Source of the DNA: an uncultured Ignavibacteria bacterium | GTDB lineage: Bacteria > Zixibacteria > MSB-5A5 > DSPP01 > RBG-1 | Length of the DNA stretch: 64,000 nucleotides | Direction of reading: 5' to 3' | Assembly (NCBI GenBank): GCA_964399055.1 | Contig: CAYNPJ010000004.1 | Location: forward strand, 11,158-75,157 | In this document: in pieces, positions 4,532-30,409 of the stretch | Layout: each line of letters begins with the position of its first letter | Numbering within the stretch: position 1 is the first letter of the stretch | Program-made: the position numbers and the translations under genes | Notes under the pieces: model-generated | The model's input: the letters and a program-made list of their open reading frames with translations, nothing else | Databases searched by the model: none | What the model was told of the DNA's origin: nothing

Positions 4532-5968
4532 CTAAGTCAGCTGATATTTAGCCATTCTATCTCTTAGAGTGTTCCTGCTCACCCCTAAAATCTTGGCCGA
4601 GCGCAGTTGATTGGACTCAGTCTGCTTCAAAACTTTTTCTATCAGCGCTTTTTCTAAGGCCGAGGAGATGTGGTCATAGATATGCCCGTCGGAATTGTCC
4701 ATAATCTTGCCGAAGACCGGTTCTAAAACTTCGGAAAAAAGCTTGTAGTAATCCTGCTGAATCTTCTGGAAGTCAAAGGGGATTCTCTCCCTGGTGTCGG
4801 AATACAGAGGGAAATGCTCCGGCGCCAAGATTTCTCCCTTGCACATCACCACTGCGGTGTGAATGTTGTTCTCTAATTCGCGCACGTTGCCGGGCCAGTG
4901 GTATCTGCCCAGCATCTCTTGAGCTTCCTTGGAGACGGACCTTATCTCTTTCCCCACCTGCGGGGCGTATTTTTTGAGGAAGTGTTTGGCTAAAACCGGT
5001 ATGTCGACTTTTCTTTCCCTCAAGGGAGGTAAATATATGGAGACCACTTTCAGACGGTAGAACAAATCTACCCTGAATTTGTTGTCTTTTATCAGCTCGA
5101 CTAAACTTTTATTAGTGGCAGCGATTACCCGGACATCCACCTTTATGGTCTCATTCCCCCCCACCCGCTCGAACTCCTGTTCTTGAAGGACGCGTAAGAC
5201 TTTGCTCTGGGTGACTAAGGACATGTCGGCGATTTCGTCCAAGAAAATAGTGCCATTGTGGCATTGTTCGAATTTTCCAATCTTGCGGGCATAGGCGCCG
5301 GTGAAGGCCCCTTTTTCATGGCCGAATAATTCTGATTCAAGTAAAGTCTCTGGCAGGGCCGCGCAGTTGACTGACAAAAAAGCCTTGTCGGCCCGGCGCG
5401 AATTGCGGAAAATGGCCCGGGCTACTAATTCTTTGCCAGTTCCGGATTCCCCCATGATTAATACTGAAGCGTCGGTTTTGGCAACCTGTCCAATTAATTT
5501 GGCTATCTCTACTATTTCCGGAGACTGGCCGATTATTTCATTTTCGCTAAACTCTCCGGGTTTGCCTCCGTTAGGGGCACCAGGCTTGCCCAGGTGTTTT
5601 TCCGAGAGGGCTTTGCGGACTTCACCAGCCACCTTTTCTAAGGTAAAAGGCTTAGTGATATAATCAAAAGCCCCCTCTTTCATAGCTTCGATGGCCGATT
5701 CAGTGGAGACGTAGCCGGTCAGGATAATGACCGGGACCTTGCCGTCAGTGGTCTTTATCTTTCTTAAGACTTCCAAGCCGGACATTCCCGGAAGATTCAA
5801 GTCTAAAAGAACTACGTCGGGCTGAAGTTCCGGTAGTTTGGCTAAGGCATCTTCCCCTTTTTCAAAGGAGAGCAGGCTGAATTCAGGAGGGGCTAAAAAC
5901 TGGGAAAGGGTCCCGCTTACTGCCGGGTCGTCATCAATCAGAAAGACCTTGGGAGTCTGCAGAGTCAT
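4532..5968 (-). CDS. sigma-54-dependent Fis-family response regulator (NtrC-like enhancer-binding protein), orphan with no adjacent kinase
   Basis: Receiver domain (VFLIDDDPAV...LLDLNLPGMSG); Pro/Gly-rich linker (GKPGAPNGGKPG); AAA+ motifs ESGTGKELVARAIF and GAFTGA; C-terminal HTH (KILGVSRNTLRDRMAKY). Confidence 0.9.
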   Translation of the reverse strand: MTLQTPKVFLIDDDPAVSGTLSQFLAPPEFSLLSFEKGEDALAKLPELQPDVVLLDLNLPGMSGLEVLRKIKTTDGKVPVIILTGYVSTESAIEAMKEGAFDYITKPFTLEKVAGEVRKALSEKHLGKPGAPNGGKPGEFSENEIIGQSPEIVEIAKLIGQVAKTDASVLIMGESGTGKELVARAIFRNSRRADKAFLSVNCAALPETLLESELFGHEKGAFTGAYARKIGKFEQCHNGTIFLDEIADMSLVTQSKVLRVLQEQEFERVGGNETIKVDVRVIAATNKSLVELIKDNKFRVDLFYRLKVVSIYLPPLRERKVDIPVLAKHFLKKYAPQVGKEIRSVSKEAQEMLGRYHWPGNVRELENNIHTAVVMCKGEILAPEHFPLYSDTRERIPFDFQKIQQDYYKLFSEVLEPVFGKIMDNSDGHIYDHISSALEKALIEKVLKQTESNQLRSAKILGVSRNTLRDRMAKYQLT

Positions 5969-6158: not shown

Positions 6159-6881
6159 TTACTTCTTACGTCTTAATCTGGCAAAACCGGCTGCACCTAA
6201 GAGGCCGCTGCCAAAGAGAAATAGAGTGGCCGGTTCAGGCACTTCAGGCGGAGTCTCACACAGGTCGGTGCCGTAAACAAATTTGACGTTCCTGATTTTG
6301 GCGCTGGGGTCAAAATAGGAAGAAATGCCGCTCAAGGTGAATACTACCTGATTCTGGATTAGAGCGTTACTTCCAGTAACCGCGGCATTCCCGGAAAATA
6401 AATTATCTGCGGCAGAGGTGATACCGTATTGCAATCCGTCAGGCGAATCAGGGCCTTGCAGATTAGGGCCCGGGAACCTGTCCCCTGACCCGAACAGGCC
6501 AAAGCCGGCAGAGCTTATGCCGTAGCGACCCAATCCATAGTTAGGAAAGCTGGAACTGTACCGAAAAGCCCACTCTCCGCCTACGTTGCCTCCATTAGAA
6601 GGGCCGTAGAATACAGATGAGCCTCCGCCCAGAGCGGCAGAGACCCTGCTTAGAGATGGATTGTACCTAATGTCGAAGAATACCGCGGTAAGCACTTCAT
6701 TGGGTGCCGTGACGTCAGCTGAGGAAGTGTTAGTCAGGGTGATTTGCAGATTTCCACTGACCACAGCAAATATAGCGCTGGCCGCCAGACTGCCACTGGA
6801 CCAGTTGTAAGTGAAAGGCACAGCCAAAGCCGTACCGCTGATTAATAGGGAAAGTAAAATCCCTGCTTTTATGAGCCTCAT
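6159..6881 (-). CDS. PEP-CTERM domain secreted protein (exosortase substrate)
   Basis: N-terminal signal peptide; C-terminal VPEPATLFLFGSGLLGAAGFARLRRKK (PEP motif, TM helix, basic tail); AGGAGG RBS. Confidence 0.9.
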   Translation of the reverse strand: MRLIKAGILLSLLISGTALAVPFTYNWSSGSLAASAIFAVVSGNLQITLTNTSSADVTAPNEVLTAVFFDIRYNPSLSRVSAALGGGSSVFYGPSNGGNVGGEWAFRYSSSFPNYGLGRYGISSAGFGLFGSGDRFPGPNLQGPDSPDGLQYGITSAADNLFSGNAAVTGSNALIQNQVVFTLSGISSYFDPSAKIRNVKFVYGTDLCETPPEVPEPATLFLFGSGLLGAAGFARLRRKK

Positions 6882-7019: not shown

Positions 7020-7658
7020 TTACTTTTTCCGGCGAAGCTTCGAAAATCCGGCTGCGCTTAGGAGTCCGCTGCCTAAGAGTAACATGGTGGCCGGCTCAGG
7101 AATTTCAGGTGTACGTCCTGGACCATACCAAGCAGTGTTTCCGTCAATCTCTTCTCTGTAGTAACCCCAGTCGAGGTGAACCAGGTATTTGGTAGTGGCT
7201 GGATTCAAATTGCATCCAGTGCCATTGAAGTCTGCCACCAGAACATTGGTGCAATCCCCTTTATGAATATAGTCGACTGGTGACCCGGTATGGGTTCCGA
7301 AAACACCTTTGGGTCTTTCGTAGCCGCCGTTGAAGTCCCAGTTGGCTATGGTAGTAACGCCGGCTGTCGTACCCCACCCAGGAACCGCAGCTTCCAAATC
7401 TGGTCCTTGATTACCGTTCTCCAAATAGACCGCAAGGGCTTTAATTCCACCGACGTTAATGATACCGCCAATTGGGGCTCCTGCATCAACGCAGACCTGG
7501 AAGGTCCAGACATTGGCAGGACCCTGAGTGCCCGTTACTGAAACAAAGCTCAAAGTCCCTGCTGAAGCGTTCAGACTTGGCCAGGGGTCAGCGTTTACGG
7601 TTGCTGCTGTCAAAACCAAAACCAGTCCCAGGATTGCCAGCAGAGTTAACTTCTTCAT
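7020..7658 (-). CDS. PEP-CTERM domain secreted protein (exosortase substrate)
   Basis: Start moved to the internal ATG at 7658 (MKKLTLLAILG..., signal peptide) preceded by AAGGAGG; C-terminal IPEPATMLLLGSGLLSAAGFSKLRRKK. Confidence 0.88.
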   Translation of the reverse strand: MKKLTLLAILGLVLVLTAATVNADPWPSLNASAGTLSFVSVTGTQGPANVWTFQVCVDAGAPIGGIINVGGIKALAVYLENGNQGPDLEAAVPGWGTTAGVTTIANWDFNGGYERPKGVFGTHTGSPVDYIHKGDCTNVLVADFNGTGCNLNPATTKYLVHLDWGYYREEIDGNTAWYGPGRTPEIPEPATMLLLGSGLLSAAGFSKLRRKK

Positions 7659-7719
7659 TGATTCCTCCTTAAAGATTTGAATTGGTTTCAAGTTATAATT
7701 CTTCATGCAGAATTAAATC

Positions 7720-7906: not shown

Positions 7907-8036
7907 TCTTAAAATACCTCTTCATCTCACTTCAGATTTGTTGCAAGAAGATGCATGATTTACTGAGCAAATCCTCTTGATATGGACTGACTCTTCTCTT
8001 GCCATTTCCTTCCGATAGAATTAATTACAACCGTTG

Positions 8037-8897
8037 ATGGAGACAAAGACTCTGGTTTTTAAACGGCTCTTACGACCCGAAATCCTGTTAATTGGGTTAG
8101 TCCTGGCCTTAATCTATTTTCCTGTCTTTGTAGAGCTCTGGGACGACTGGGAAAGGGATTCTAATTATTCCCACGGCTTCTTAGTGCCTTTGGTCTCCTT
8201 GTTCCTGCTCTGGAAAAAGCGTCGGGAGCTAAGCCAGATTCCTGCTAAACTCTCACCTTTCGGCTTGGCCATCATTGCTGCCGGGCTCTTTCTGCTCATA
8301 GTTGGAACTGCCGGAGCTGAGTATTTTTCGGTCCGACTCTCCTTTGTGGCTCTGATCTTTGGACTGGTCTGGTACTTTGGGGGGGATAAACTGGCAAAAA
8401 GCGCTGCGGTGCCAATCTGGTACCTGGTCTTGGCCATTCCAGTTCCTTATGTGATTTACTTTGCCATGGCTTTTCCCCTTCAGCTTCTGGCCACTAAAGC
8501 GACTGTGGTCCTGCTCCACCTGATGGGCCTACCTTCCATCCGGCAGGGGAACATCATACATCTTCCGGGCTACAGTCTGGAAGTAGTGGAAGCCTGTTCC
8601 GGCTTGCGCTCTTTAATGTCCCTCTTAGCCCTGTCCGGCGTCTATGCCTATTTAACCCAGAAGACTAAACTGAGAAAATTCATTCTCTTTGCCTCTGCGG
8701 TACCGATTGCTCTGGTTGCCAATATCTTTCGAATCATAATCACTGCCTTAGGAGCTTACTTAATCTCACCTAAAATGGCTGAGGATTTCCTGCATGAGCT
8801 TTCCGGCCTGGTGGTCTTCATCATATCTTTTATCTGTCTGTTCATCTTAGGGGAAATATTAAAGCGCATCGGGGCCAAGAAACCGGCTGTCTCTTGA
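8037..8897 (+). CDS. exosortase (PEP-CTERM-processing transpeptidase, Xrt family)
   Basis: Polytopic membrane protein; conserved active-site context EVVEACSGLRSLMS (ACSG Cys motif) and IANIFRII Arg motif; adjacent to two PEP-CTERM genes; the ORF opens at TTG 8034 but the ATG at 8037 is used here. Confidence 0.85.
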   Translation: METKTLVFKRLLRPEILLIGLVLALIYFPVFVELWDDWERDSNYSHGFLVPLVSLFLLWKKRRELSQIPAKLSPFGLAIIAAGLFLLIVGTAGAEYFSVRLSFVALIFGLVWYFGGDKLAKSAAVPIWYLVLAIPVPYVIYFAMAFPLQLLATKATVVLLHLMGLPSIRQGNIIHLPGYSLEVVEACSGLRSLMSLLALSGVYAYLTQKTKLRKFILFASAVPIALVANIFRIIITALGAYLISPKMAEDFLHELSGLVVFIISFICLFILGEILKRIGAKKPAVS

Positions 8898-8932: not shown

Positions 8933-9859
8933 ATGCCTATTTTCAAACTTGCGGAGCTAAACTATCAGGACCTGGAAAAACTCTCGCCCGGTAAAACCGT
9001 CTTTTTTATAGTGATTTCCCCTTTAGAGGAGCATGCTCCCCACCTGCCAGTGGGGACTGACCTCTATATTGCCCGGTATTTTGCCCACCGGTGCGCTGAA
9101 GAGCTAATCCAGAGCCGTCCGGAGTGGAATGTGGTCTTAACCCTTCCCATTCCGGTCGGAGCCAATGTCTTCGAATTCAAAGGCTCGGTCCGACATTCCA
9201 TTCGGACAGTTTATGACGTATTATTAAGTTACGGGAAGGCCATCGCTGAGTGGGGGTTTAAAAACTTGGTCATCATCTCGTCGCATGGCGGAGCCGGACA
9301 CATCTCAGTTTTGGAAGAAGCAGCAATAAGAATCTCCAAAAAGTATAAAATCAAGGCCATCTCTCTTACCGGGGTAATTGCGATTGATTTTCTACAGGGT
9401 AAGTACACCGAACAGATACAGAATGCACTTTACAAGCGTCTGGACGATGAGGACCTCAAACATCTAAAATATGATTACCATGCCGGCTGGTGGGAGACCT
9501 CCATGATGCTTTTGATAAAGCCGGAATTGGTCAGGGAAGAATACAAAGAGCTCCCGCCGGTCCTGATTGAAAGCCCCCTGCAACTGAGAGCCGATGCGGC
9601 CTTGAAATTAGGACAGGGCCTGGGATATTTCGGCACCCCCTCTTTTGCGGATGTTAAGTTGGCTGAGGCATCTTCCAAAGTACTGCTAAGTGAGGGAATG
9701 AAGATTCTGTACCGGTTCTTGGATGGGGAGGATGTGAGCAAGGAAACGCAATCCATTATCTTTAAAAGCTTACTATTCCGCAGAGATTTTTTGAGACTTG
9801 CAATTTCGCTGGCAATTTTTCTTCTTATTCTGATTCTTCTTCTTATCAAATCACTCTAA
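8933..9859 (+). CDS. creatininase-family amidohydrolase (creatinine amidohydrolase/MftE-like fold) with a C-terminal transmembrane anchor
   Basis: Metal-binding motifs LEEHAPHLPVGTD and SSHGGAG typical of the creatininase family; hydrophobic C-terminus LAISLAIFLLILILLLI. Confidence 0.6.
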   Translation: MPIFKLAELNYQDLEKLSPGKTVFFIVISPLEEHAPHLPVGTDLYIARYFAHRCAEELIQSRPEWNVVLTLPIPVGANVFEFKGSVRHSIRTVYDVLLSYGKAIAEWGFKNLVIISSHGGAGHISVLEEAAIRISKKYKIKAISLTGVIAIDFLQGKYTEQIQNALYKRLDDEDLKHLKYDYHAGWWETSMMLLIKPELVREEYKELPPVLIESPLQLRADAALKLGQGLGYFGTPSFADVKLAEASSKVLLSEGMKILYRFLDGEDVSKETQSIIFKSLLFRRDFLRLAISLAIFLLILILLLIKSL

Positions 9860-9975
9860 AACGCTAGATTTTCAATAGCATCAATTCGCTTTCGAGCATT
9901 GTGCAACTCCTTGCACATTCTCTGCTAAACCCTACAGGTTTAAACCCCGACCTCGGATTCTTTGTCACAAAATCT

Positions 9976-9989
9976 AACCGATTTCGGTT
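9976..9989. promoter_or_regulatory. perfect 14-bp palindrome AACCGATTTCGGTT about 110 bp upstream of the sugar-transferase sigma-54 promoter; candidate UAS
   Basis: Read directly; sits in an AT-rich non-coding stretch at the spacing typical of enhancer-binding-protein sites. Confidence 0.35.
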
Positions 9990-10097
9990 TTCTCTCATTT
10001 TTTATAACCTCAAGCTAATTAAGGGATTAGCTAAACGAAGGAACATCTTTATTTTCACATTTTCGACAATATATATATATTTTTCCTCCCCTCCCAG

Positions 10098-10113
10098 TGG
10101 CAGTAGTTTTGCT
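10098..10113 (+). promoter_or_regulatory. sigma-54 promoter TGGCAG-N5-TTGCT upstream of the sugar transferase
   Basis: Plus-strand TGGCAGTAGTTTTGCT with exact GG-N10-GC spacing; lies inside the nominal ORF 9901..11127, whose N-terminal ~75 codons are low-complexity and AT-rich, so it is probably a leader. Confidence 0.6.
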
Positions 10114-10188
10114 ATTGACATAAGTCAAGTTGTAGATGCCGTAAGTTTAACACCCCTTAACAGAGATCGGAAGGTTGGGATAATAGAA

Positions 10189-11127
10189 TTGATAGAGATT
10201 AATATAAGTACAGCTAAACCTGCAGAATCCGGGCAGAAAATTTCTGCTCGCCGGCTAAATCCTGCAGCCAACGGTAGCAATGGCAATGGAAACGGGTCTG
10301 GCCGTCAGAATGGCAGCAACGGCAATGGCTCTGCGCTGACGTCTCGCTATTCCGAACAGGTATTATCCAACGTTTATTTAGCTTCTTACGTTTTCTATAC
10401 CTTTCTGAGAGGCCTGGATGGCGCTCAGCCGGAGGTAAAATTCACGACCCGTCTGAGGTTATCCTGCAAAAGAGTCCTGGATGTATTACTCTCCGGAATG
10501 GGCTTGATTCTGCTCTCGCCACTCTTTTTAATGCTGGCGGTATTAATCAAACTAGATTCAGAGGGGCCGGTTTTTTACAAACAAGAGAGAATCGGGCAGA
10601 ACCGGCGCAAAGGTGACCGGAGACGCTTTCAGTTTGATATGAGCAGCGACCGGCGCTTAAACCGTAACCGGCGACGCGAAGATTATTTTGGGGTGCCGTT
10701 CACAGTTTATAAATTCAGGACCATGCACAAGGACGCCGAGAAAAAGTGTGGGCCTATCTGGGCTACCAAAGACGACCCCCGGGTGACCAGAATTGGCCGT
10801 CTGCTGCGTAAGACCAGATTGGATGAGCTTCCTCAGCTCTGGAATGTGTTTAAAGGGGAAATGTCCCTGGTGGGTCCCCGACCGGAAAGACTTTATTTTG
10901 TCCGCAAATTAGCTCCCCAGGTCAGGAATTATACCATGAGACTTACTTTCAAGCCCGGCATAACCGGACTGGCTCAAGTCGAAAAAGGGTATGACTCCAG
11001 CGTGGGTGACGTTAATAAGAAATTAAAATACGACTTACTATATATTAACAACTGGAGCCTGTGGAAAGATATAAAGATTCTGGTTAAGACCACTCTGGTT
11101 GTGATAACCGGAAAGGGTGCTTTTTAA
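10189..11127 (+). CDS. polyprenyl-phosphate (undecaprenyl-phosphate) sugar phosphotransferase, 'bacterial sugar transferase' family (PglC/WbaP C-domain/EpsB-like); start uncertain
   Basis: KRVLDVLLSGMGLILLSPLFLMLAVLIKLDSEGPVFYKQERIG...YKFRTM...VGPRPE...GITGLAQV. The ORF track starts at GTG 9901, but a sigma-54 promoter at 10098 and no in-frame ATG before 10498 suggest TTG 10189 or ATG 10498 as the start. The product contains an unusual ~29-aa Arg-rich insertion. Confidence 0.75.
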   Translation: MIEINISTAKPAESGQKISARRLNPAANGSNGNGNGSGRQNGSNGNGSALTSRYSEQVLSNVYLASYVFYTFLRGLDGAQPEVKFTTRLRLSCKRVLDVLLSGMGLILLSPLFLMLAVLIKLDSEGPVFYKQERIGQNRRKGDRRRFQFDMSSDRRLNRNRRREDYFGVPFTVYKFRTMHKDAEKKCGPIWATKDDPRVTRIGRLLRKTRLDELPQLWNVFKGEMSLVGPRPERLYFVRKLAPQVRNYTMRLTFKPGITGLAQVEKGYDSSVGDVNKKLKYDLLYINNWSLWKDIKILVKTTLVVITGKGAF

Positions 11128-11148
11128 GCTGAATTTTTCAGGAGAGTG

Positions 11149-11178
11149 AGCCAGGGATAAAGCCCTGGCTTTTTTATT
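11149..11178 (+). terminator. rho-independent terminator after the sugar transferase
   Basis: AGCCAGGG-ATAAA-GCCCTGGCT followed by TTTTTTATT. Confidence 0.75.
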
Positions 11179-11187
11179 AAAAACTCC

Positions 11188-11216
11188 TTGCCATACCACA
11201 GGTTAAATCTTATACT
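11188..11216 (+). promoter_or_regulatory. sigma-70-like promoter TTGCCA-N17-TATACT for the PEGA-FN3-membrane-prsK-prsR operon
   Basis: -35 at 11188-11193 and -10 at 11211-11216; about 34 nt upstream of the ATG at 11250. Confidence 0.5.
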
Positions 11217-11249: not shown

Positions 11250-11975
11250 ATGAAACGGTTTGGCATTATTGCCCTGATTTTGACATTAGCCGCGGCAAGT
11301 ACAATTTGGGCTCAGGAAGACACCGCCCAGGTTACTCTGCGTATAACCTCCAATCCTCCGGGCGTTACCGTTAATCTGGATGGACCTTACCAACTCACGA
11401 CCACGACTCCATCTGACATTACCCAGGAGTTAATGGGAACTTACAGAGTCAAAGCTGAAAAATTCGGATATGAGTCCTGGAACTCCTACATCACTTTGAC
11501 ACCGGACCAGCCTGCCAGTTTGAGGATATCACTTTCGCCCAAGACCAGAATCAAAGCCGCCTTCAGGTCGGTACTCCTTCCTGGCTGGGGACAGTTTTAC
11601 AGTGATCGAAAGGGATGGGGATATTTCTTCGCGACCGGAAGCCTGGTCATGGCGACCGGTTTTGTTCTGGCGGATTTGCACTACAGCAATGAATATGATG
11701 ATTACTTGGACGCCAAAAAAGAATTCGAAGAGGCCGTCAGTATCGAAGAGAAGACTAAGCTGAAAGAGAAGCTGGATGACCGGCAGAGCAAGGCTTACGA
11801 TGCCCAGAAGTTAAGAAATGCGGCCCTCGGGGTGGGTATCGCCTTCTGGGCTTACAATGTGCTGGATAATATAATCTTCTTCCCTTCGGTACAGAGTGGC
11901 GTATTTGAGAAACTATCGACGGACTTTGACCCCAATACCGGGCAGGTCAGGCTGACCTACAATTACTCTTTCTGA
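11250..11975 (+). CDS. PEGA-domain membrane protein (signal peptide, PEGA domain, TM segment, coiled region)
   Basis: VTLRITSNPPGVTVNLDG...YRVKAEKFGYESW matches the PEGA consensus; hydrophobic helices follow. Confidence 0.55.
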   Translation: MKRFGIIALILTLAAASTIWAQEDTAQVTLRITSNPPGVTVNLDGPYQLTTTTPSDITQELMGTYRVKAEKFGYESWNSYITLTPDQPASLRISLSPKTRIKAAFRSVLLPGWGQFYSDRKGWGYFFATGSLVMATGFVLADLHYSNEYDDYLDAKKEFEEAVSIEEKTKLKEKLDDRQSKAYDAQKLRNAALGVGIAFWAYNVLDNIIFFPSVQSGVFEKLSTDFDPNTGQVRLTYNYSF

Positions 11976-11987
11976 AACTTACAAGAG

Positions 11988-13541
11988 ATGAAGAAACTCC
12001 TTTCGGTCTTTTTAATCATAGGCTTGGGCTTAATCTTCTTAAATTGTGAGCGGAAGCTGAAAGACTCTACAGGTCCTGCTTTAAATCTCAATCCGCCACC
12101 CACCCCCAAGAACATAGTTCTGGAAATTGGAGATAAGACCATAAAGCTCAGCTGGAGCGTGGACAGCTTGAACGGCATCAGCTATTTTAAGATTTACCGC
12201 TCTGACTCAGTCGGAGTGGAGCCAAAGTTATACGATTCTACGGCCACTGCCATTACGACCTATACAGACCTGGGACTCAAGAATGGCCAGGAATACTTCT
12301 ATCGAATTAGCTCGGTGGCGACGGACAAATTGGAAGGGTACAAATCGGTCAAGGTCAGCGCTGTTCCTAATCTTTTTGCAGTAACGATAAACAGCGGGGC
12401 TAAATACACTAACAATCGCAGCGTCACTATCGGACTGACCGGTGCCAGCAATACCCGGCATGTGATTATTTCGGAAGATTCTCTTTTCGGAGACGCCTCC
12501 TGGCAGACTTTTTCAGGTTCCAAGAGTTTCACCCTTTCTTTCACCGATGGAACCAAGTATGTCTACGCCAGGTTCCGGGACCAGGACGGCAATGAGAGCT
12601 CTGATTTATACTGGGATGACATAATCCTAGACACCCAGGCCAGCATTAGCAGTGTGACCGAGAATACTGCCGGACAGATTAGACAGGCCGGCCAGATAAT
12701 CCATTTTGCGGTAACCGCCGGAGAGACAGAGGGGACGGCCAGGCTCGATTTGGGGACGGTCAGAGACATAGGGCTCTTTGACGACGGCACTCACGGAGAT
12801 GCCTCTGCCAATGACGGCATCTATGAGCTGGATTACATAATTCCCGCTGATGTAGAAATTGCCGATGCTGTGGTTACAGGGGAATTCACTGACGCAGCCG
12901 GCAATCAGGCGCCATCTAAAACTGCCACAGGCCGGGTGACCATTGCCAAAGCCCCGGGGCCGGTGAATTTATTCGCCCCTTTTGCTGTCCCTAATTCTTA
13001 TAGTTCCATCACCTTAAACTGGTCGACCAGCAATGAGAGCGATTTCTCAGTTTATCGCATCTACCGCTCCACATCTTCCGGAGTGGACTTAAATGACACT
13101 TTGATTGCCAACCTTACCAATAAGTCTACTACAACCTATACGGATACGGCTTTATTTGAAAACACCTGGTACCATTATCGAGTCTTTGTCTTTGATGCCA
13201 ACAACCTCTCTGCTGGTTCGAATGAAGACTCGGCTCGCACCAATCAGAACACTCCGCCGACAGCGGTAGTCTTAGCCACGCCCTCCAGGGTCGATTCCAC
13301 CAGCCTGAAATTGGTGTGGACTCAGAATAGCGACCCTGACTTTGATTCTTATCGGATTTACCGCTCAGTCTCTGCCGGGGTGGATACTCTGGATATGTTG
13401 ATTACAGTAGTCAATCAGGCCGGTACCACCGAATATACTGATGAGAATCTGACAACCGGTCAAAATTATTTCTATCGAGTCTTTGTATTTGATCGCAAAG
13501 GACTTTTTACAGGCTCTAATGAAGTCTCTGCTGCACCCTAG
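11988..13541 (+). CDS. secreted/lipoprotein with three fibronectin type-III domains
   Basis: Signal peptide with Cys (IFLNCERK); recurring FN3 signatures (YFYRISSV, WYHYRVFVFD, YFYRVFVFD). Confidence 0.65.
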   Translation: MKKLLSVFLIIGLGLIFLNCERKLKDSTGPALNLNPPPTPKNIVLEIGDKTIKLSWSVDSLNGISYFKIYRSDSVGVEPKLYDSTATAITTYTDLGLKNGQEYFYRISSVATDKLEGYKSVKVSAVPNLFAVTINSGAKYTNNRSVTIGLTGASNTRHVIISEDSLFGDASWQTFSGSKSFTLSFTDGTKYVYARFRDQDGNESSDLYWDDIILDTQASISSVTENTAGQIRQAGQIIHFAVTAGETEGTARLDLGTVRDIGLFDDGTHGDASANDGIYELDYIIPADVEIADAVVTGEFTDAAGNQAPSKTATGRVTIAKAPGPVNLFAPFAVPNSYSSITLNWSTSNESDFSVYRIYRSTSSGVDLNDTLIANLTNKSTTTYTDTALFENTWYHYRVFVFDANNLSAGSNEDSARTNQNTPPTAVVLATPSRVDSTSLKLVWTQNSDPDFDSYRIYRSVSAGVDTLDMLITVVNQAGTTEYTDENLTTGQNYFYRVFVFDRKGLFTGSNEVSAAP

Positions 13542-13544
13542 GCC

Positions 13545-14390
13545 ATGAACTGGCTTTACAAGCTCAATAATTTCTTTCGCATCTGGGGAGCTACCTTTAA
13601 AGCCATGGGAAAGCTCAAAATCTGGCTCCCCTTGCTAATTCTGCTGATATTGCAGATACTGGTTCTTTTTCAATTAGTCAGATTCTATCAGCCCCAGGTC
13701 TCCTGGCTTTTGGTTCCTTTGTTTAAGTTGATTGCCAGCGAAAGAGCGCTGCACTACCCTCAGTTTTATTTGGCTCTTCCCTATTTGTATAACCTTTTTA
13801 ACTTAGTCCTGATTGGCTTTTTTAGCATTTTTGTCAACGCCCTGGTCATCTGGCTCCTGTCTTCACATTTCTGGGGGAAGAAACTTAGCTACAAGGAGGC
13901 CTGGCAGAACACCAGAACCAGATTCGGACATCTGTTTTTAATCTGGTTTTTTAATACCTTGGTGGCCGCTCTAATTCTGATTCTTCCCGGAGTCTTATTT
14001 TCCAACTGGATGTCCGGCTCTCCCCGGCGGACCTTTTTCATTCAAGCGGCAAGTTTTGGCGCTGGAGTTTTGGTCTCCGGACTTTTCGCCTACTGCTATA
14101 ACTCTATCTTACTTTCCGGGGACGCCTGGCTCAAATCCCTATCAACCAATTTCAGAATTTTCCAGCGCAACTTTTTCTCCACCTGTTTTTTTATTGGCAT
14201 TCCCGGATTGTTGTCCTGGGGTTACGGCATCCTGACCAGCAATACGCCTTTGATAATGTCCAAATTCAGGCCCGACATAGTGCCAGTGCTTTTAGTAATC
14301 GGCTCGGTCATAAATCTTTTGGTGGTCTTCTGGATTTTAGGCTCTTTAGCCCGGCTCTTTCTGTATGAGGTAAAAGAGGTTCAGTTGTGA
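13545..14390 (+). CDS. polytopic integral membrane protein, unknown function
   Basis: Multiple hydrophobic helices; translationally coupled between the FN3 protein and prsK. Confidence 0.5.
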   Translation: MNWLYKLNNFFRIWGATFKAMGKLKIWLPLLILLILQILVLFQLVRFYQPQVSWLLVPLFKLIASERALHYPQFYLALPYLYNLFNLVLIGFFSIFVNALVIWLLSSHFWGKKLSYKEAWQNTRTRFGHLFLIWFFNTLVAALILILPGVLFSNWMSGSPRRTFFIQAASFGAGVLVSGLFAYCYNSILLSGDAWLKSLSTNFRIFQRNFFSTCFFIGIPGLLSWGYGILTSNTPLIMSKFRPDIVPVLLVIGSVINLLVVFWILGSLARLFLYEVKEVQL

Positions 14391-14393
14391 GTT

Positions 14394-16514
14394 ATGTCAG
14401 TTCTCTTTGCCGTAATCGCCAGCCTGACCTTAATCTTCGCCGTAGTAGTACTCCTCCGCAATCCTAAAGAGCTTTCCTTTTGGGCTTTTTTTCTCACCGG
14501 CCTATTCTGGGTCTCAATTTTAGCCGGCATTCTGTTTTCACTGCGCTGGGAGTTTCCTCTCTGGGGCTCTGCTCTTCTGGCTCTGGGGATTAGTTTCCTG
14601 CCCTCCCAGGGGACTTTTTTCAGTTTCTGCTTTGCCAGAGAAAATGTCCGGGAACTGTTAAAGCGCTGGCAGTGGTTTCTGGGGCTGACTTACGCCTTCA
14701 GTATAGTTTTTTTCATCTTAGCCCTGCAGGGGAAAGTTTACGCCTTAGGAGTCGGGGAAGTCGAAGGAAAACTGCTATTGGCCTATACCAATCCGGGACG
14801 GCTCTTTCTGGCTTTCCTCTTCTTGACTACTCTGGTCAGCTTAGTCAATTTGGAAAACACTTATCGTCTATCCAAGGGTAAAGAGCGCTCCCGCTTAAAA
14901 TTGCCTCTCACTCTGTCGGTCTCTGCTTACGCCTGGTTGATTTATTCTCTGACCAGTTCCTTCGTATTGGGCTATCTGCAATACTGGGTTTTGCAGGTGG
15001 GTTTTCTCTTAATCTTGGCGGCTCTGATTTCAACCGGCGTTTATCAGCTCAAACAGAGCACTCATCTGCCGGCAATCTATATGGGGCGGAGACTGGCTTA
15101 TTCCTCAGCCGCTTTTGTGCTGGTGGGACTCTACTTAGTCTTCATCGGCCTGGTGGCCAGTTTCATACCCAAACTGGGCGGGAATTTGCAGATTTTCATC
15201 TCGGTCTTAGCCGCCCTGATGGTCTTGATTGTACTGGTAATCTTGGCCTTCTGGGAGACCTGGAGAAAGAGGCTGGAGCATTTGCTGGAAAGGCTTCTCT
15301 ATCCGGGTAAATTCGATTTTCGCGAGGAGTGGAAGAGATTTTCTGAAAATATCTCGGCTCTGCTGGATTCGGGTGAAATTCAAAAAGAGACCGACAAGGT
15401 CATCCGGGAGAATTTGCGGGTCGACCAGTTGGCAGTATATTCCCGCACCAGCAGGAACAGCGATTTGAGAATCACGCATCACTCCTCAGGCAACTATGAC
15501 CAGCCGCCGGCCCTGCCGCCGGAGGACCCTTTCTGGGGCTGGCTTCTGCGCTATGGGGAGACAGTAGAGAAGAGGCAGATAGAAAGGCTGTTGGAAACTT
15601 ATGCCAGCGGCTCTCAGATTAAACATATTTTAGAGCAGACTAAAGGTGAGGTTATAACTCCCTTGATCGCCAACCGGGAGCTGGAAGGGATGATTATCCT
15701 CTCAGACAAGGAAGAGCAGGAGGCTTATACTAACGAAGATTTCGATCTGTTAAATGCCATCTCCGGACAGGCCGCTCTAGCCCTGTTGAATGCCCGGGTA
15801 GGGCAGGAACTGATTTTAAGCAAGGAGATGGAGTCCTTTCACAAATTTGCGGCCTTTGTGGTTCATGACCTGAAGAATTCCATCTCCATGCTCTCTATGC
15901 TTTTGGCCAATGCCCAGGGGAATCTGAATAACCCTCAGTTTCTGGCCAGCGCCTTGGAGACGGTGGACCAGGCAGTCAAAAAAATGAAGACCCTGGCAGA
16001 TAAACTCTCCTCCCCGCCGGAAGGCAGCACCTTAGTGTTAAGGCAAACGGATTTGAATCAGGTCTGGCAGATGGCGGCCCGGGATTTAAAATTGGAGCTG
16101 CTGCCGAACATAAAAGTGGAGTGGCAGTTAGGCGAGTTACCTCTGGTCAACTGCGACCAGGTTCAGTTGGAGAAGGTCTTTCAGAATCTGTTTTTGAATG
16201 CGGTGGAGGCTATGCCTAAGGGAGGTTCGATTAGAGTTACCACTCAATTCTTTGAGAATCAGAATCATCTTCCGGAAGTACGGATGAGCGTCCGGGATAA
16301 CGGAGTCGGCCTAAGCCCGGAATATCTGCGCACCCGTTTATTCCAGCCCTTTGCCTCCACCAAGAAGTCCGGCTTGGGCATAGGTCTGTTTCAGTCTAAG
16401 GAGATTGTTGAACAACACGGAGGCAGAATCTGGGTGGAGACCTGCGAGGGCAAAGGAACCGTTTTTTACATCACCCTGCCAGTGAAAGCAACAGCAGCAC
16501 CGGTAAACAAGTAG
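14394..16514 (+). CDS. prsK: PEP-CTERM system sensor histidine kinase (PrsK family)
   Basis: About 8 N-terminal TM helices, a GAF-like domain, HisKA (FAAFVVHDLKNSIS) and HATPase_c (GLGIGLFQSKEIVEQHGGRIWVE); immediately upstream of the sigma-54 regulator. Confidence 0.8.
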   Translation: MSVLFAVIASLTLIFAVVVLLRNPKELSFWAFFLTGLFWVSILAGILFSLRWEFPLWGSALLALGISFLPSQGTFFSFCFARENVRELLKRWQWFLGLTYAFSIVFFILALQGKVYALGVGEVEGKLLLAYTNPGRLFLAFLFLTTLVSLVNLENTYRLSKGKERSRLKLPLTLSVSAYAWLIYSLTSSFVLGYLQYWVLQVGFLLILAALISTGVYQLKQSTHLPAIYMGRRLAYSSAAFVLVGLYLVFIGLVASFIPKLGGNLQIFISVLAALMVLIVLVILAFWETWRKRLEHLLERLLYPGKFDFREEWKRFSENISALLDSGEIQKETDKVIRENLRVDQLAVYSRTSRNSDLRITHHSSGNYDQPPALPPEDPFWGWLLRYGETVEKRQIERLLETYASGSQIKHILEQTKGEVITPLIANRELEGMIILSDKEEQEAYTNEDFDLLNAISGQAALALLNARVGQELILSKEMESFHKFAAFVVHDLKNSISMLSMLLANAQGNLNNPQFLASALETVDQAVKKMKTLADKLSSPPEGSTLVLRQTDLNQVWQMAARDLKLELLPNIKVEWQLGELPLVNCDQVQLEKVFQNLFLNAVEAMPKGGSIRVTTQFFENQNHLPEVRMSVRDNGVGLSPEYLRTRLFQPFASTKKSGLGIGLFQSKEIVEQHGGRIWVETCEGKGTVFYITLPVKATAAPVNK

Positions 16515-16523
16515 TTTGAGAAA

Positions 16524-17885
16524 ATGGACCGGGATAAGATTCTCATTGTAGACGACGAAGAGGGAATCCGCACTCAACTTGCCTGGGCTCTGTCTGCGGA
16601 ATACCGAGTCTTGCAGGCTGACTCGGCAGCGCCAGCCTTGGATATAGTCCGGGCAGAGAACCCGAATCTAATCTTGCTGGATTTAGCCTTAAGCACCACT
16701 CAGGCCGAGCCGGATGGATTGGAACTCTTGGGAACTTTTCTGGAGAAAGACCCCTTTTTGAAAGTCATTATGATCACCGGCCATGATGAAAAGCCCAATG
16801 CTTTGGAGGCCATTAAAAAGGGGGCTTACGACTTTTACGCCAAACCCATCGACTTAGATGAAATTAAAATCATCATAAAGCGGGCTCTCTACATCCAGAA
16901 ATTGGAAAAAGAGAACCGGCAATTAGCTGAAGAGTTAGAGAGTAAACAAAAATTTGAGGAAATCATTGGCACCTCAGAGAAGATGGAGCAGATTTACCGG
17001 ACCGTTTCCAGGGTTGCCCCCACTGATGCCACAGTTCTGGTAGTGGGAGAATCCGGCACCGGCAAGGAACTGATAGCCAGAGCCATTCACAGCCTGTCAC
17101 CCCGTAGTTCCAAGCCTTTTGTCACCATCAACTGCGGGGCTATTCCGCCCAATCTTTTGGAATCCGAGCTCTTTGGTCACGAAAAGGGAGCCTTTACTGA
17201 CGCCCACATCCAGCGCAAGGGGAGGTTCGAAATGGCTGAAGGCGGGACAATTTTCTTAGATGAAATCGGCGAACTCTCTCTGCCCCTGCAGGTCAAGATT
17301 CTGAGGTTTTTGCAGGAAAAAGAGATTGAACGAGTGGGAGGCCGGGAGCCAATTTACGTGGATGCCAGGGTTCTGGCGGCGACAAACAAGGCGCTGCTGG
17401 AAGAGGTCAAGCTGAAAACCTTCAGAGAAGACCTTTATTACCGGCTCAGTGTAATTACCATTAATCTTCCCTCTTTAAAAGAGAGGGGTCAGGACATATT
17501 GCTTTTGGCCCACACCTTTTTGAGCCGTTTTTCGGCAGAATACAACAAAAGCAAGCTGACTTTTAGTCCTGCGGCCGAGAGGGCCCTTTTAGCCTATCCC
17601 TGGCCCGGCAACGTGCGCGAGCTGGAGAACAAAGTCAAACGGGCGGTAATTTTAAGCCTGGGAAATAAGATTACTCCCTATGATTTGGGACTGGAACAAG
17701 AGTCCGGAGGCAAGAGGCCAACCCTGCAGGAGCTGCGGGAGCAAGTAGAGAGTCAGTTCATTCAGGAAACGCTCCAGCGCCATCAGGGGAACGTCACCAA
17801 CGCTGCTAAAGAATTAGGGGTTAGCCGGACTACTCTTTATGATATCATGGAGAAGTACAAGATTAAAAGAGAGTCTTTGGATTAA
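16524..17885 (+). CDS. prsR: PEP-CTERM-box sigma-54-dependent response regulator (PrsR family)
   Basis: Receiver domain (ILIVDDEEGIR...LLDLAL); AAA+ motifs GESGTGKELIARAIH and GAFTDA; C-terminal HTH. Confidence 0.85.
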   Translation: MDRDKILIVDDEEGIRTQLAWALSAEYRVLQADSAAPALDIVRAENPNLILLDLALSTTQAEPDGLELLGTFLEKDPFLKVIMITGHDEKPNALEAIKKGAYDFYAKPIDLDEIKIIIKRALYIQKLEKENRQLAEELESKQKFEEIIGTSEKMEQIYRTVSRVAPTDATVLVVGESGTGKELIARAIHSLSPRSSKPFVTINCGAIPPNLLESELFGHEKGAFTDAHIQRKGRFEMAEGGTIFLDEIGELSLPLQVKILRFLQEKEIERVGGREPIYVDARVLAATNKALLEEVKLKTFREDLYYRLSVITINLPSLKERGQDILLLAHTFLSRFSAEYNKSKLTFSPAAERALLAYPWPGNVRELENKVKRAVILSLGNKITPYDLGLEQESGGKRPTLQELREQVESQFIQETLQRHQGNVTNAAKELGVSRTTLYDIMEKYKIKRESLD

Positions 17886-29959: not shown

Positions 29960-30409
29960 TTACTTTCCGGATATAGTAATCGGAATCTCTTTGGGCTTCA
30001 CTTCTTCAGCCTTGGGTAATTCCACCCGCAGGATTCCATTCTCGTAAGCCGCCTTAATCTTATCCGCCTTGACCATAGTAGGCAGACTGAAGGAGCGGGT
30101 GAAGAAGCCGTAGTTCCGCTCGAGGCGGTGATAATTAGTATCTTTATCCTCTTTCTCCTGGTGCTTCTCACCCCGGATAGTGAGGATGTTATCCTGGACC
30201 GAAACCTTGATGTCGTCTCTCTTCATTCCAGGGAGTTCTAACGAGACCACCACATCATCCTTAGTCTCGTAGATGTCAGTGGCCGGAAGCCACATCCCAC
30301 CATCTTCTATCTGGCGAGTTCCCCGGTCGAAGAAGCCTTCGAACATCCGGTTAACTTCATCCTGTAGATTGTACAGGTCTCTAAATGGTCTCCATCTTAC
30401 TAACGTCAT
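29960..30409 (-). CDS. Hsp20/alpha-crystallin family small heat-shock protein
   Basis: Alpha-crystallin domain (VSLELPGMKRDDIKVSVQDNILTIRGEK...GILRVELPK); AGGAGG RBS. Confidence 0.9.
   Translation of the reverse strand: MTLVRWRPFRDLYNLQDEVNRMFEGFFDRGTRQIEDGGMWLPATDIYETKDDVVVSLELPGMKRDDIKVSVQDNILTIRGEKHQEKEDKDTNYHRLERNYGFFTRSFSLPTMVKADKIKAAYENGILRVELPKAEEVKPKEIPITISGK

Follow-up and report, generated by a model that had tools for sequence, protein, structure and literature searches.

The question raised by this locus is where the sugar transferase that it encodes begins, and what the DNA ahead of that start does. The window (the whole stretch of DNA analysed, 64,000 nt) comes from a Zixibacteria-like genome and forms an XrtA/PEP-CTERM locus, in which the transferase is called from GTG 9901 (9901..11127, 408 aa); public collections hold the same 408-aa product (P0001). 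No stop interrupts the frame between 9868 and 11127, and the only in-frame ATG, GTG or TTG codons within 9901-10500 are GTG 9901, TTG 10189 and ATG 10498, the last of which is M104 of ...KRVLDVLLSGMGLILL. A preliminary description of this DNA, which had correctly noted that no in-frame ATG precedes 10498 and that TTG 10189 is the sole candidate between that codon and GTG 9901, closed on two alternatives: an enzyme with an unusual Asn/Gly/Ser-rich N-terminal tail, or a structured or translated leader with regulatory potential. Comparison across orthologous loci favors the first of these and points to a sigma-54 promoter with a distant putative activator site in the DNA that had been called as the N-terminus.

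The -24/-12 element and the upstream dyad

The element TGGCAGTAGTTTTGCT at 10098..10113 on the forward strand has the layout of a sigma-54 (-24/-12) promoter: its GG (10099-10100) and GC (10111-10112) doublets are separated by exactly 10 nt, and 10/12 positions match the consensus TGGCACG-N4-TTGCW. Each of the 13 loci has GG-N10-GC 51-99 nt ahead of the start codon (76 nt from the motif end to TTG 10189 in the window), and in an eight-locus alignment (A2) GGCA and GTTTTGCTATT are invariant. Across the window, TGGCA-N6-TTGCW was observed three times compared to 0.33 expected, a count reached in 0/100 shuffles, and all three sites are intergenic and oriented toward a gene 40-76 nt downstream; a separate sigma-54 motif at 7735-7720 precedes a PEP-CTERM gene. 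Conservation in every locus, position, orientation and enrichment in the window bear out the earlier proposal that a sigma-54 promoter at this site drives the gene, and on these grounds we regard the element as real and predict that the gene is sigma-54-dependent in vivo. A search of the 64-kb window for an RpoN box found none, and the presence of rpoN is therefore implied only by the two activators described below.

Upstream of this element, a dyad that is perfect in the window, TGTGCA-N6-TGCACA (9900..9917), is, by its conservation and spacing, a candidate upstream activator sequence for an NtrC-family enhancer-binding protein. It carries no more than two mismatches in 11/13 orthologous loci and three in the other two, compared to a chance occurrence at two or fewer mismatches in ~1% of random 400-nt windows. 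The distance from the dyad to the -24 element is 194-198 nt (~197), and 181-222 nt in distant relatives. Zixibacteria loci contained 11 pairings of dyad and sigma-54 motif, each one ahead of the transferase gene, and 825 kb of negative-control loci contained none. These controls are the loci of unrelated transferases from a contig scan with the full alignment, which contains the generic motifs PGITGLAQV and VLxGEMSLVG and for which the matches listed included unrelated transferases only; a scan of metagenome contigs with residues 50-175 yielded one more true ortholog (L093), the others being WbaP-like or generic. The center of the dyad falls at ~-215 from the predicted transcription start, farther upstream than most enhancer sites.

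Directly 3' of the dyad lies a conserved block, TTCTCTGCTAAACCCTACA (9918..9936, forward strand), in which columns T64, G65, C66, T67, C72, T74, A75, C76 and A77 of alignment A2 are invariant and whose ...TACA/GACA end is retained in distant loci; it may extend the activator site or form a second one. Between this block and the promoter is an AT-rich spacer (9937..10097), whose GC content is 0.35 (window, 0.48; true coding sequence, 0.49) and which includes a pyrimidine-rich, AT-rich low-complexity tract at ~10069-10095. The preliminary description was thus accurate in placing AT-rich low-complexity DNA within the called N-terminus. In nine near-clade loci, which are related and so do not provide independent observations, the spacer measures 156-159 nt, while its pairwise identity (49-56%) equals that of a shuffled control (52%). 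A length that is held while the sequence is randomized fits an enhancer-binding-protein site, and the dyad fits a candidate activator site of this type, though it could alternatively form an RNA hairpin. Within the spacer, AACCGATTTCGGTT (9976-9989) had been described as a perfect 14-bp palindrome and actually consists of 6-bp arms around a non-complementary TT; palindromes of this 6+2+6 form are common by chance (26 in the window versus ~14 in shuffles) and this one is unconserved in orthologous loci, so it was set aside as a meaningful element.

We also weighed whether the main transcript might instead arise from a sigma-70-type promoter (10054-10081 and 10157-10184 being examples) or from xrtA-creatininase read-through, in which case GG-N10-GC and the dyad would have some other role, for instance that of an RNA hairpin or a repressor operator. 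Sigma-70-like matches at both positions score 10/12, the creatininase-family gene is followed by no strong terminator (only the weak hairpin at 9976-9989), and the dyad can be folded as a 7-bp hairpin. The sigma-70-like hexamers, however, are unconserved in the alignment in which the -24/-12 element is invariant, and a -10 hexamer at 10179-10184 would put the transcription start at or after the TTG. In the orthologs, upstream genes differ or sit on the opposite strand, and read-through is therefore not the conserved mode. Constant dyad-promoter spacing over a randomized spacer further argues that the two elements act jointly. We consider this alternative improbable, if the best placed of those examined.

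By contrast, we judge the sigma-54/enhancer explanation as a whole, with a start at TTG 10189, to be probable. An NtrC-family enhancer-binding protein (PrsR or the activator encoded at 4532-5968) would bind the dyad at 9900-9917, loop over the AT-rich spacer of fixed length (~160 nt) and, by use of ATP, open the sigma-54 holoenzyme complex at 10098-10113. Transcription would begin near 10124, proceed through an unstructured leader of ~65 nt to TTG 10189, and end at a terminator at 11148-11177. Positions 9860-10188 of the window are on this reading a regulatory region and not protein, and the GGCAATGG repeats encode a disordered Asn-Gly-rich tail of ~49 residues.

Start codon and leader

The start was placed by comparison of orthologs, which supports a coding sequence at 10189..11127 (forward strand) for a polyprenyl-phosphate glycosyl-phosphotransferase of 312 aa with a TTG start. 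In six of eight aligned loci, the column of TTG 10189 holds a TTG, GTG or ATG (TTG/TTG/GTG/GTG/ATG/ATG). In-frame stops lie 1-26 codons 5' of this column in five orthologs (L001, L002, L005, L006 and L008); they are one codon away in L008 and four codons away in L001, and in L002, L005 and L006 an in-frame stop falls directly 3' of the sigma-54 motif. Close homologs are 312-320 aa long and start within ~7 codons of the TTG 10189 column, and residues 1-96 of the 408-aa call align to no homolog except P0002, whose extension is the same DNA read through. Taken together, the 13 orthologous loci put the start within a few codons of TTG 10189, yielding a 312-aa protein, and they mark the call from GTG 9901 as an over-extension whose codons 1-96 (9901-10188) are non-coding. 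The suspicion that the annotated N-terminus is spurious, and the choice of TTG 10189 as the start, are both upheld by the ortholog stops, the start codons in the ortholog column, the lengths of the homologs, and regulatory elements that are conserved without a reading frame. A start-codon error propagated in public databases (408 aa) would thereby be corrected to 312 aa, and the spurious GTG 9901 falls within the dyad, that is, inside a likely activator site.

The same architecture with initiation at a nearby alternative or non-canonical codon, such as ATA 10180, would account for some details. A Shine-Dalgarno-like GGAAGG at 10169-10174 is separated from the TTG by a long 14 nt, and L002 has an ATG in the column of ATA 10180, 5 nt past this conserved block. 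L005 and L006 have GTA, not a start codon, in the TTG column, and their start is therefore six codons upstream in both; together with the long GGAAGG-TTG distance, this means that the exact start may shift by a few codons. ATA is, however, a very rare initiator, and the start codons at the 10189 column in most aligned loci, along with the stops just 5' of it in L008 and L001, make initiation at such a neighboring codon unlikely.

With a transcription start predicted from the usual sigma-54 geometry, TTG 10189 would be preceded by a 5' UTR of ~65 nt (10124..10188, forward strand). Although the preliminary description had envisaged a long regulatory leader, this one is short, and only its sequence is conserved, in the block GGAGGTTTGG of alignment A2: RNAalifold found 0 conserved pairs in the leader, its minimum free energy (RNAfold, -8.9 kcal/mol, z = +1.47 versus shuffles) is not unusually stable, and an Rfam search at a permissive E-value returned only matches with E > 1. 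A structured or translated regulatory leader (riboswitch, attenuator or uORF) was rejected, as no conserved structure or upstream ORF was found, and the comparison supports a leader of ~65 nt lacking conserved structure.

The Asn-Gly-rich tail and the encoded enzyme

Translation from TTG 10189 yields an N-terminal tail (residues 1-49, 10189..10335, forward strand) that is predicted to be disordered from an AlphaFold model, with pLDDT <50 over residues 1-51. It contains seven Asn-Gly dipeptides and four N-G-S triplets, encoded in part by two 20-nt repeat copies (10270-10289 and 10309-10328) that are 85% identical. These had been described as near-tandem; they are spaced 39 nt (13 codons) apart, and Tandem Repeats Finder reports no array in the region. 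Read against the frame, both copies encode NGSNGNG and their three differing positions are all synonymous. Among orthologs, the NG-rich part shows differences of 0.41/0.35/0.64 at codon positions 1/2/3 and the core 0.21/0.12/0.51, indels in the Asn/Gly/Ser stretch (10270-10330) keep the frame, P0002-P0011 keep NGNG motifs, and relatives retain NGNG/NGT motifs as neighboring residues drift. This third-position excess with in-frame indels is a protein and not an RNA pattern of conservation, and indicates that the stretch is coding and conserved as protein; of the two alternatives with which we began, the Asn/Gly/Ser-rich tail is the correct one.

The tail, with its seven NG dipeptides and four N-G-S/T triplets, might itself be functional, as a post-translational control module on the priming enzyme, either a deamidation-prone timer or degron or a cytoplasmic N-glycosylation acceptor; the one observation in favor of this is the conservation of NG motifs among drifting neighbors, and we consider it quite unlikely. 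If true, such a module would add a second layer of control above the sigma-54 gate.

Less likely still is the reading in which the NGS/GGCAATGG stretch belongs to a long leader, as structured RNA or a translated uORF, and the enzyme begins at ATG 10498. No earlier in-frame ATG exists, and there is indeed a +1-frame ORF, MAMETGLAVRMAATAMALR*, of 19 codons at 10280-10339. This part of the earlier uORF proposal stands; its regulatory part does not, as the ORF is internal to the coding sequence and unconserved, its counterparts in orthologs being of unrelated sequence and anywhere between 0 and 60 codons long. AAT-GGN codons give rise to the "uORF" incidentally. An inverted repeat at 10230-10250, also inside the coding sequence, is absent from L002, L005 and L006. 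A start at ATG 10498 would moreover lose the invariant K94, R95 and D98 and half of the membrane helix, while residues 53-93 and the NG motifs are kept as protein, the repeat copies differ only synonymously, and Rfam provides no match, so that on comparative evidence this reading is already contradicted. Finally, a real 408-aa protein from GTG 9901 with a low-complexity N-terminal extension has the open frame and the public call in its favor and is virtually dismissed by ortholog stops, unaligned residues, a GC content of only 0.35, and conservation that falls on the promoter and dyad rather than on the reading frame.

The 312-aa product itself is identified by its profile matches (PF02397, 229 bits, cut-off 27; TIGR03025, 305.6 bits, cut-off 295.55) as a monotopic phosphoglycosyl transferase, predicted to prime exopolysaccharide synthesis in the XrtA/PEP-CTERM locus. 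Its PF02397 catalytic domain, KFRTM and LDELPQ motifs and modelled helix-break-helix membrane anchor (LLSPLF) are shared with PglC and WbaP (PglC 8e37, Foldseek E = 1e-11; WbaP 8t53, phmmer E = 3e-30). From the AlphaFold model, hydropathy and alignment, an aromatic-rich helix (residues 50-76) is followed by the anchor (residues 85-123; 10336..10557 in all, forward strand). The modelled helices span residues 50-76, 85-108 and 110-123, and hydropathy attains 2.3 only at residues 96-125. The anchor carries K94, R95, D98 and S110-P111, of which K94, D98 and P111 are invariant among homologs, and D212-E213 is conserved. Unlike PglC and WbaP, the protein has an N-terminal region of ~90 residues (the disordered Asn-Gly-rich tail, then the aromatic helix) and an Arg-rich insertion (~30 residues) that separates the first and second strands of the catalytic domain. 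This insertion (residues 138-167, 10600..10689, forward strand) splits the Pfam match into two stretches, aligns poorly to WbaP and has low pLDDT at residues 141-162; 25 homologs all retain six of its 11 arginines (R139, R140, R144, R145, R156 and R162).

Candidate activators, related systems and the transcription unit

The proposed arrangement resembles NtrC/NifA-type sigma-54 promoters (such as glnAp2) in having a dyad of TGCAC half-sites upstream of GG-N10-GC, AT-rich intervening DNA, and a predicted AAA+ activator encoded nearby. The NtrC site is TGCACC-N5-GGTGCA, from which the dyad differs in half-site orientation and spacing. It also differs from these systems in that a single dyad is evident, ~-215 falls toward the far limit of the distances usually seen, and no convincing IHF site was found in the spacer, where the one 1-mismatch consensus match was rejected.

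Two PF00158 proteins are encoded within the window. One is the sigma-54-type response regulator PrsR (16524-17885, forward strand; TIGR02915, 571.3 bits, cut-off 502.6), adjacent to the histidine kinase PrsK (14394-16514, forward strand; TIGR02916, 334.7 bits, cut-off 300). The other, identified by family matches and motif, is an NtrC-family sigma-54 activator with an intact GAFTGA (4532..5968, reverse strand), whose orthologs in L091 and L092 (56-58% identity) stand at the end of the transferase cluster. PrsR has GAFTDA in place of GAFTGA. This substitution was considered and rejected as a bar to PrsR being the activator: it is conserved in 103/120 homologs, and GAFTDA is listed among variants thought to stay active and has been seen in an active-class regulator (PMC4641369). 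We infer that PrsR is a candidate activator acting at the dyad, with the 4532-5968 protein as the alternative candidate. The region 9900-9936 offers a precise DNA target for telling which neighboring activator controls matrix production in an uncultured phylum.

In Proteobacteria, a PEP-CTERM box has been described for PEP-CTERM genes that occur with PrsK/PrsR: a sigma-54 motif (motif 2) at a mean of ~71 nt from the start codon, and a 17-nt motif 1 ending in TTTACA that lies ~63 nt (32-92) upstream of motif 2, these motifs being found only in Proteobacteria (Haft et al., 2006; PMC1569441). The present locus shares with that regulon the XrtA (EpsH) exosortase locus, PEP-CTERM proteins, PrsK and PrsR, a long non-coding upstream region with a sigma-54 motif at a similar distance (76 nt), and a single-gene target unit. 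It differs in its organism (Zixibacteria-like), in its target (a priming glycosyltransferase, not a PEP-CTERM protein), in the GAFTDA of its PrsR, and in carrying the TGTGCA-N6-TGCACA dyad ~180 nt before the sigma-54 motif, the element reported for that regulon being the TTTACA motif at ~63 nt. No TTTACA-type block is conserved in alignment A2 at the motif 1 distance, and the fetched proteobacterial loci gave no usable example of a TTTACA motif upstream of sigma-54-like sites. Experiments have demonstrated that one PEP-CTERM gene, pepA of Aquincola tertiaricarbonis, depends on RpoN; its transcription start was mapped experimentally downstream of a -24/-12 promoter (TGGCAC/CTGCTT), and this PEP-CTERM system also includes PrsK/PrsR and EpsB2. 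In the accessible text of that study, the sigma-54 target is the PEP-CTERM gene and sigma-54 control of a sugar transferase is not reported (PMC9850573).

These comparisons would take the PrsK/PrsR and sigma-54 model of Haft et al. outside the Proteobacteria and to genes other than PEP-CTERM ones. At their XrtA/PEP-CTERM loci, Zixibacteria seem to place the committed first step of exopolysaccharide synthesis in a tightly gated sigma-54 unit of its own, which has a dedicated enhancer and an enhancer-promoter distance that appears to be under selection. What emerges is an ordinary, well-supported candidate sigma-54/enhancer unit controlling a priming glycosyltransferase, together with an annotation correction, useful to specialists in exopolysaccharide and sigma-54 regulation and unsurprising.

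The transferase retains its regulatory region across loci although its upstream neighbors vary, and downstream it is closed by a predicted intrinsic terminator (GCCAGGG...CCCTGGC, then T6; 11148..11177, forward strand). A hairpin with a T-run was found at this place in 11/11 orthologous loci examined, the distant ones with a different stem sequence, and the transferase gene is therefore predicted to be monocistronic. Beyond the terminator, a sigma-70-like promoter (TTGCCA-17-TATACT, 11188..11216, forward strand) precedes an operon encoding a PEGA/DUF5683 protein, an fn3 protein, a 281-aa protein, PrsK and PrsR, and the block GTTAAAAACTCCTTGCC...TTTATACT at this promoter is kept in seven loci.

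Start codon and N-terminal tail of the transferase

The sugar transferase was called as a 408-aa ORF (9901-11127, +) opening at a GTG, and the preliminary description suspected that its N-terminus was mis-annotated; both this ORF and the AT-rich, pyrimidine-rich tract within it are present where they had been placed. Homologs were sought among about 5.8 billion proteins, and orthologous DNA was compared across eight close and four distant loci, plus one from a metagenome scan. Many homologs of 299-325 aa were recovered, and in the closest (312-320 aa; 83-61% identity) the N-terminus falls within a few codons of the TTG 10189 column. In the DNA alignment of orthologs this column reads TTG, TTG, GTG, GTG, ATG and ATG, an exchange that is the pattern expected for a start codon. 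Orthologous loci carry in-frame stops upstream of it, one codon away in L008, four codons in L001 and 26 codons in L002, L005 and L006, where the stop lies directly 3' of the sigma-54 motif; the frame that stays open back to 9901 in the window is therefore accidental. Both the suspected mis-annotation and TTG 10189 as the start are thus borne out. GTG 9901, TTG 10189 and ATG 10498 are the only in-frame start codons available, and ATG 10498 was excluded, as a protein begun there would lack K94 and D98, both invariant, along with half of the membrane anchor.

The Asn/Gly/Ser repeats had been proposed to belong to a long leader. Eight orthologs compared base by base differ at codon positions 1, 2 and 3 in fractions of 0.41, 0.35 and 0.64 for residues 29-52, 0.34, 0.24 and 0.54 for residues 53-93, and 0.21, 0.12 and 0.51 for the catalytic core, and indels among homologs keep the frame. 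Two 20-nt copies each encode N-G-S-N-G-N-G (residues 28-34 and 41-47), and their three mismatches, read against the frame, are all synonymous; NGNG motifs occur in every close homolog, while adjoining residues vary. The pattern is that of coding sequence and, with a leader of only about 65 nt predicted, the long repeat-bearing leader is refuted. The repeat described as near-tandem is not tandem: its two 20-nt copies lie 39 nt apart, and Tandem Repeats Finder reports no array in this stretch. The ORF noted in the +1 frame is present at 10280-10339 and exists because AAT-GGN codons contain ATG; it is not conserved in orthologs, some of which lack it while others have up to 60 codons of unrelated sequence.

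In the AlphaFold model (mean pLDDT 68), residues 1-49 are disordered and are followed by a helix (50-76), a helix-break-helix anchor (85-123) and a transferase fold matching PglC and WbaP. The protein is an exopolysaccharide priming enzyme whose disordered, Asn-Gly-rich tail is unusual. In its catalytic domain, ERIG and FTVYKFRTM flank an Arg-rich insertion (NRRKGDRRRFQFDMSSDRRLNRNRRREDYF; 10600-10689, +) of some 30 residues, 11 of them Arg. Several of these Arg do not vary among 25 homologs; disorder is predicted for the segment, and nothing corresponds to it in the alignments of the PDB matches, chains of PglC and WbaP. Codons 14-21 contain a near-perfect inverted repeat (CGGGCAGAAA/TTTCTGCTCG; 10230-10250, +), identical in the two closest relatives and probably fortuitous, because it is not kept in L002, L005 and L006.

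The predicted sigma-54 promoter and the upstream dyad

The sigma-54 motif TGGCAGTAGTTTTGCT lies at 10098-10113 (+), as previously placed, 76 nt from the transferase start. Against an expectation of 0.33, the window has three TGGCA-N6-TTGCW sites, a number that no shuffle out of 100 attained; all three are intergenic and directed toward a gene. A GG-N10-GC element with at least nine of 12 consensus matches lies 51-99 nt ahead of the start in 13 of 13 loci, and GGCA...GTTTTGCTATT is invariant between variable flanks in the eight-sequence alignment. Kept throughout and enriched in the window, the promoter looks genuine. The second site, TGGCATAACGGTTGCT (7735-7720, -), is 61 nt upstream of a PEP-CTERM gene listed at 7020-7706 (-), whose real start is ATG 7658 (RBS AAGGAGG, signal peptide MKKLTLLAILGLVLVLTAATVNA). 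The third, TGGCATACTACTTGCT (30465-30450, -), stands about 40 nt ahead of the ATG of an HSP20 small heat-shock gene (29960-30409, -); no TGCA-N6-TGCA dyad was seen upstream of it.

Usual sigma-54 geometry would place the transcription start near 10124. The resulting leader shows no conserved base pairs among orthologs, has no Rfam match and, with z = +1.47, is less stably folded than shuffled sequence. The palindrome described as 14 bp and perfect is a palindrome with 6-bp arms around a non-complementary TT; 26 of this kind occur in the window versus about 14 in shuffles, and it is not conserved in orthologous loci.

The alignment contains a second invariant block (9900-9936), in which the mis-annotated GTG start falls and where a perfect dyad, TGTGCA-ACTCCT-TGCACA (9900-9917), is followed by TTCTCTGCTAAACCCTACA. 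The dyad has at most two mismatches in 11 of 13 loci and three in the remaining two; a match with at most two arises in about 1% of random 400-nt windows. Its start lies 195-198 nt upstream of the -24 element in nine near-clade loci; in distant relatives this distance is 194, 206, 222 and 181 nt. A dyad with a sigma-54 motif 150-260 nt away was found 11 times in Zixibacteria loci, always ahead of the transferase gene, and not once in unrelated loci, of which 825 kb were scanned on both strands. The spacer between the blocks measures 156-159 nt in nine loci, with an identity (49-56%) no better than that of a shuffled control (52%). Selection acts on spacer length, not on its sequence, as would be expected if a dyad-bound protein has to reach the promoter complex through a DNA loop. 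The dyad, which goes beyond the preliminary description, is a candidate enhancer-like site. CTAAC recurs in the block after the dyad (9925-9930) and about 80 nt downstream (10005-10011), the latter with invariant columns (T146, A147, A148 and C152 of the eight-locus alignment A2) in an otherwise unconserved spacer, and may be a second protein site.

Gene order and limits of the unit

The locus is of the XrtA exosortase/PEP-CTERM exopolysaccharide type, and candidate division Zixibacteria is the annotation of most named homologs, for the transferase as for PrsR. An NtrC-family sigma-54 activator (4532-5968, -) and two PEP-CTERM proteins (6159-6881 and 7020-7658, -) are followed by exosortase XrtA (8034-8897, +), a creatininase-family protein (8933-9859, +) and the transferase. 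Upstream neighbours vary among orthologous loci (a transposase fragment, FG-GAP proteins, an oxidoreductase on the other strand, creatininase); therefore, the dyad-to-promoter block belongs to the transferase gene.

After the stop codon, the window and all orthologs examined have a GC-rich hairpin with a T-run (11148-11177, +), its stem differing in sequence in distant relatives. Downstream of this terminator is a conserved sigma-70-like promoter (TTGCCA-17-TATACT; 11188-11216, +), ahead of the PEGA gene. Together they part the transferase from an operon encoding a PEGA/DUF5683 protein (11250-11975), a 517-aa fn3-like protein (11988-13541), a 281-aa protein (13545-14390), PrsK (14394-16514; TIGR02916, 335 bits, cut-off 300) and PrsR (16524-17885; TIGR02915, 571 bits, cut-off 503), all on the + strand. 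The transferase is therefore predicted to be a single-gene sigma-54 unit, and the operon ending in prsK-prsR has its own promoter. The block after the terminator (GTTAAAAACTCCTTGCC...TTTATACT) is highly conserved and resembles a sigma-70-type promoter.

Candidate activators and relation to the PEP-CTERM regulon

PrsR is encoded in the locus, and in the nearest relative it (P0122) and the transferase (P0004) very likely share a contig; for each, the longest contig measures 70,199 nt. Its sigma-54-contact motif (around 17187) is GAFTDA, versus the canonical GAFTGA found in a proteobacterial PrsR (L062). GAFTDA or GSFTDA occurs in 103 of the 120 closest homologs, mostly from Zixibacteria, so that GAFTDA is a conserved lineage variant, not an error; it is listed among variants expected to retain activity (PMC4641369). 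The second, NtrC-family activator carries GAFTGA and scores below the PrsR and NtrC cut-offs. Its orthologs (56-58% identity; L091 10419-11843, L092 10157-11587), not PrsR, end the transferase cluster in these two distant Zixibacteria loci, and neither PrsK nor PrsR was seen in the stretch fetched downstream. The protein that acts at the dyad may in fact be this activator. Upstream of the PEP-CTERM promoter are TGTCA-N3-TGACA (7782-7770) and CTGTC-N9-GACAG (7905-7887), unlike the transferase dyad; therefore, the two activators may serve different promoters.

Haft et al. described, in Proteobacteria only, a 17-nt motif ending TTTACA about 63 nt ahead of a sigma-54 motif, itself about 71 nt ahead of PEP-CTERM genes, with a phylogenetic profile matching PrsK, PrsR and PrsT (PMC1569441); in Aquincola, a gene of this kind was shown to depend on RpoN (PMC9850573). 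The transferase unit resembles this regulon in having the sigma-54 motif at a similar distance from the start, a layout of one gene per unit and PrsK/PrsR, but belongs to another phylum, has a priming transferase as its target and carries an upstream element of other nature and distance. It would work like the PEP-CTERM regulon but falls outside the PEP-CTERM box as published, since motif 1 does not occur at the defined distance. It is a member of the sigma-54/enhancer class, new here, with a conventional, well conserved predicted order of enhancer, sigma-54 promoter, short leader, gene and terminator.
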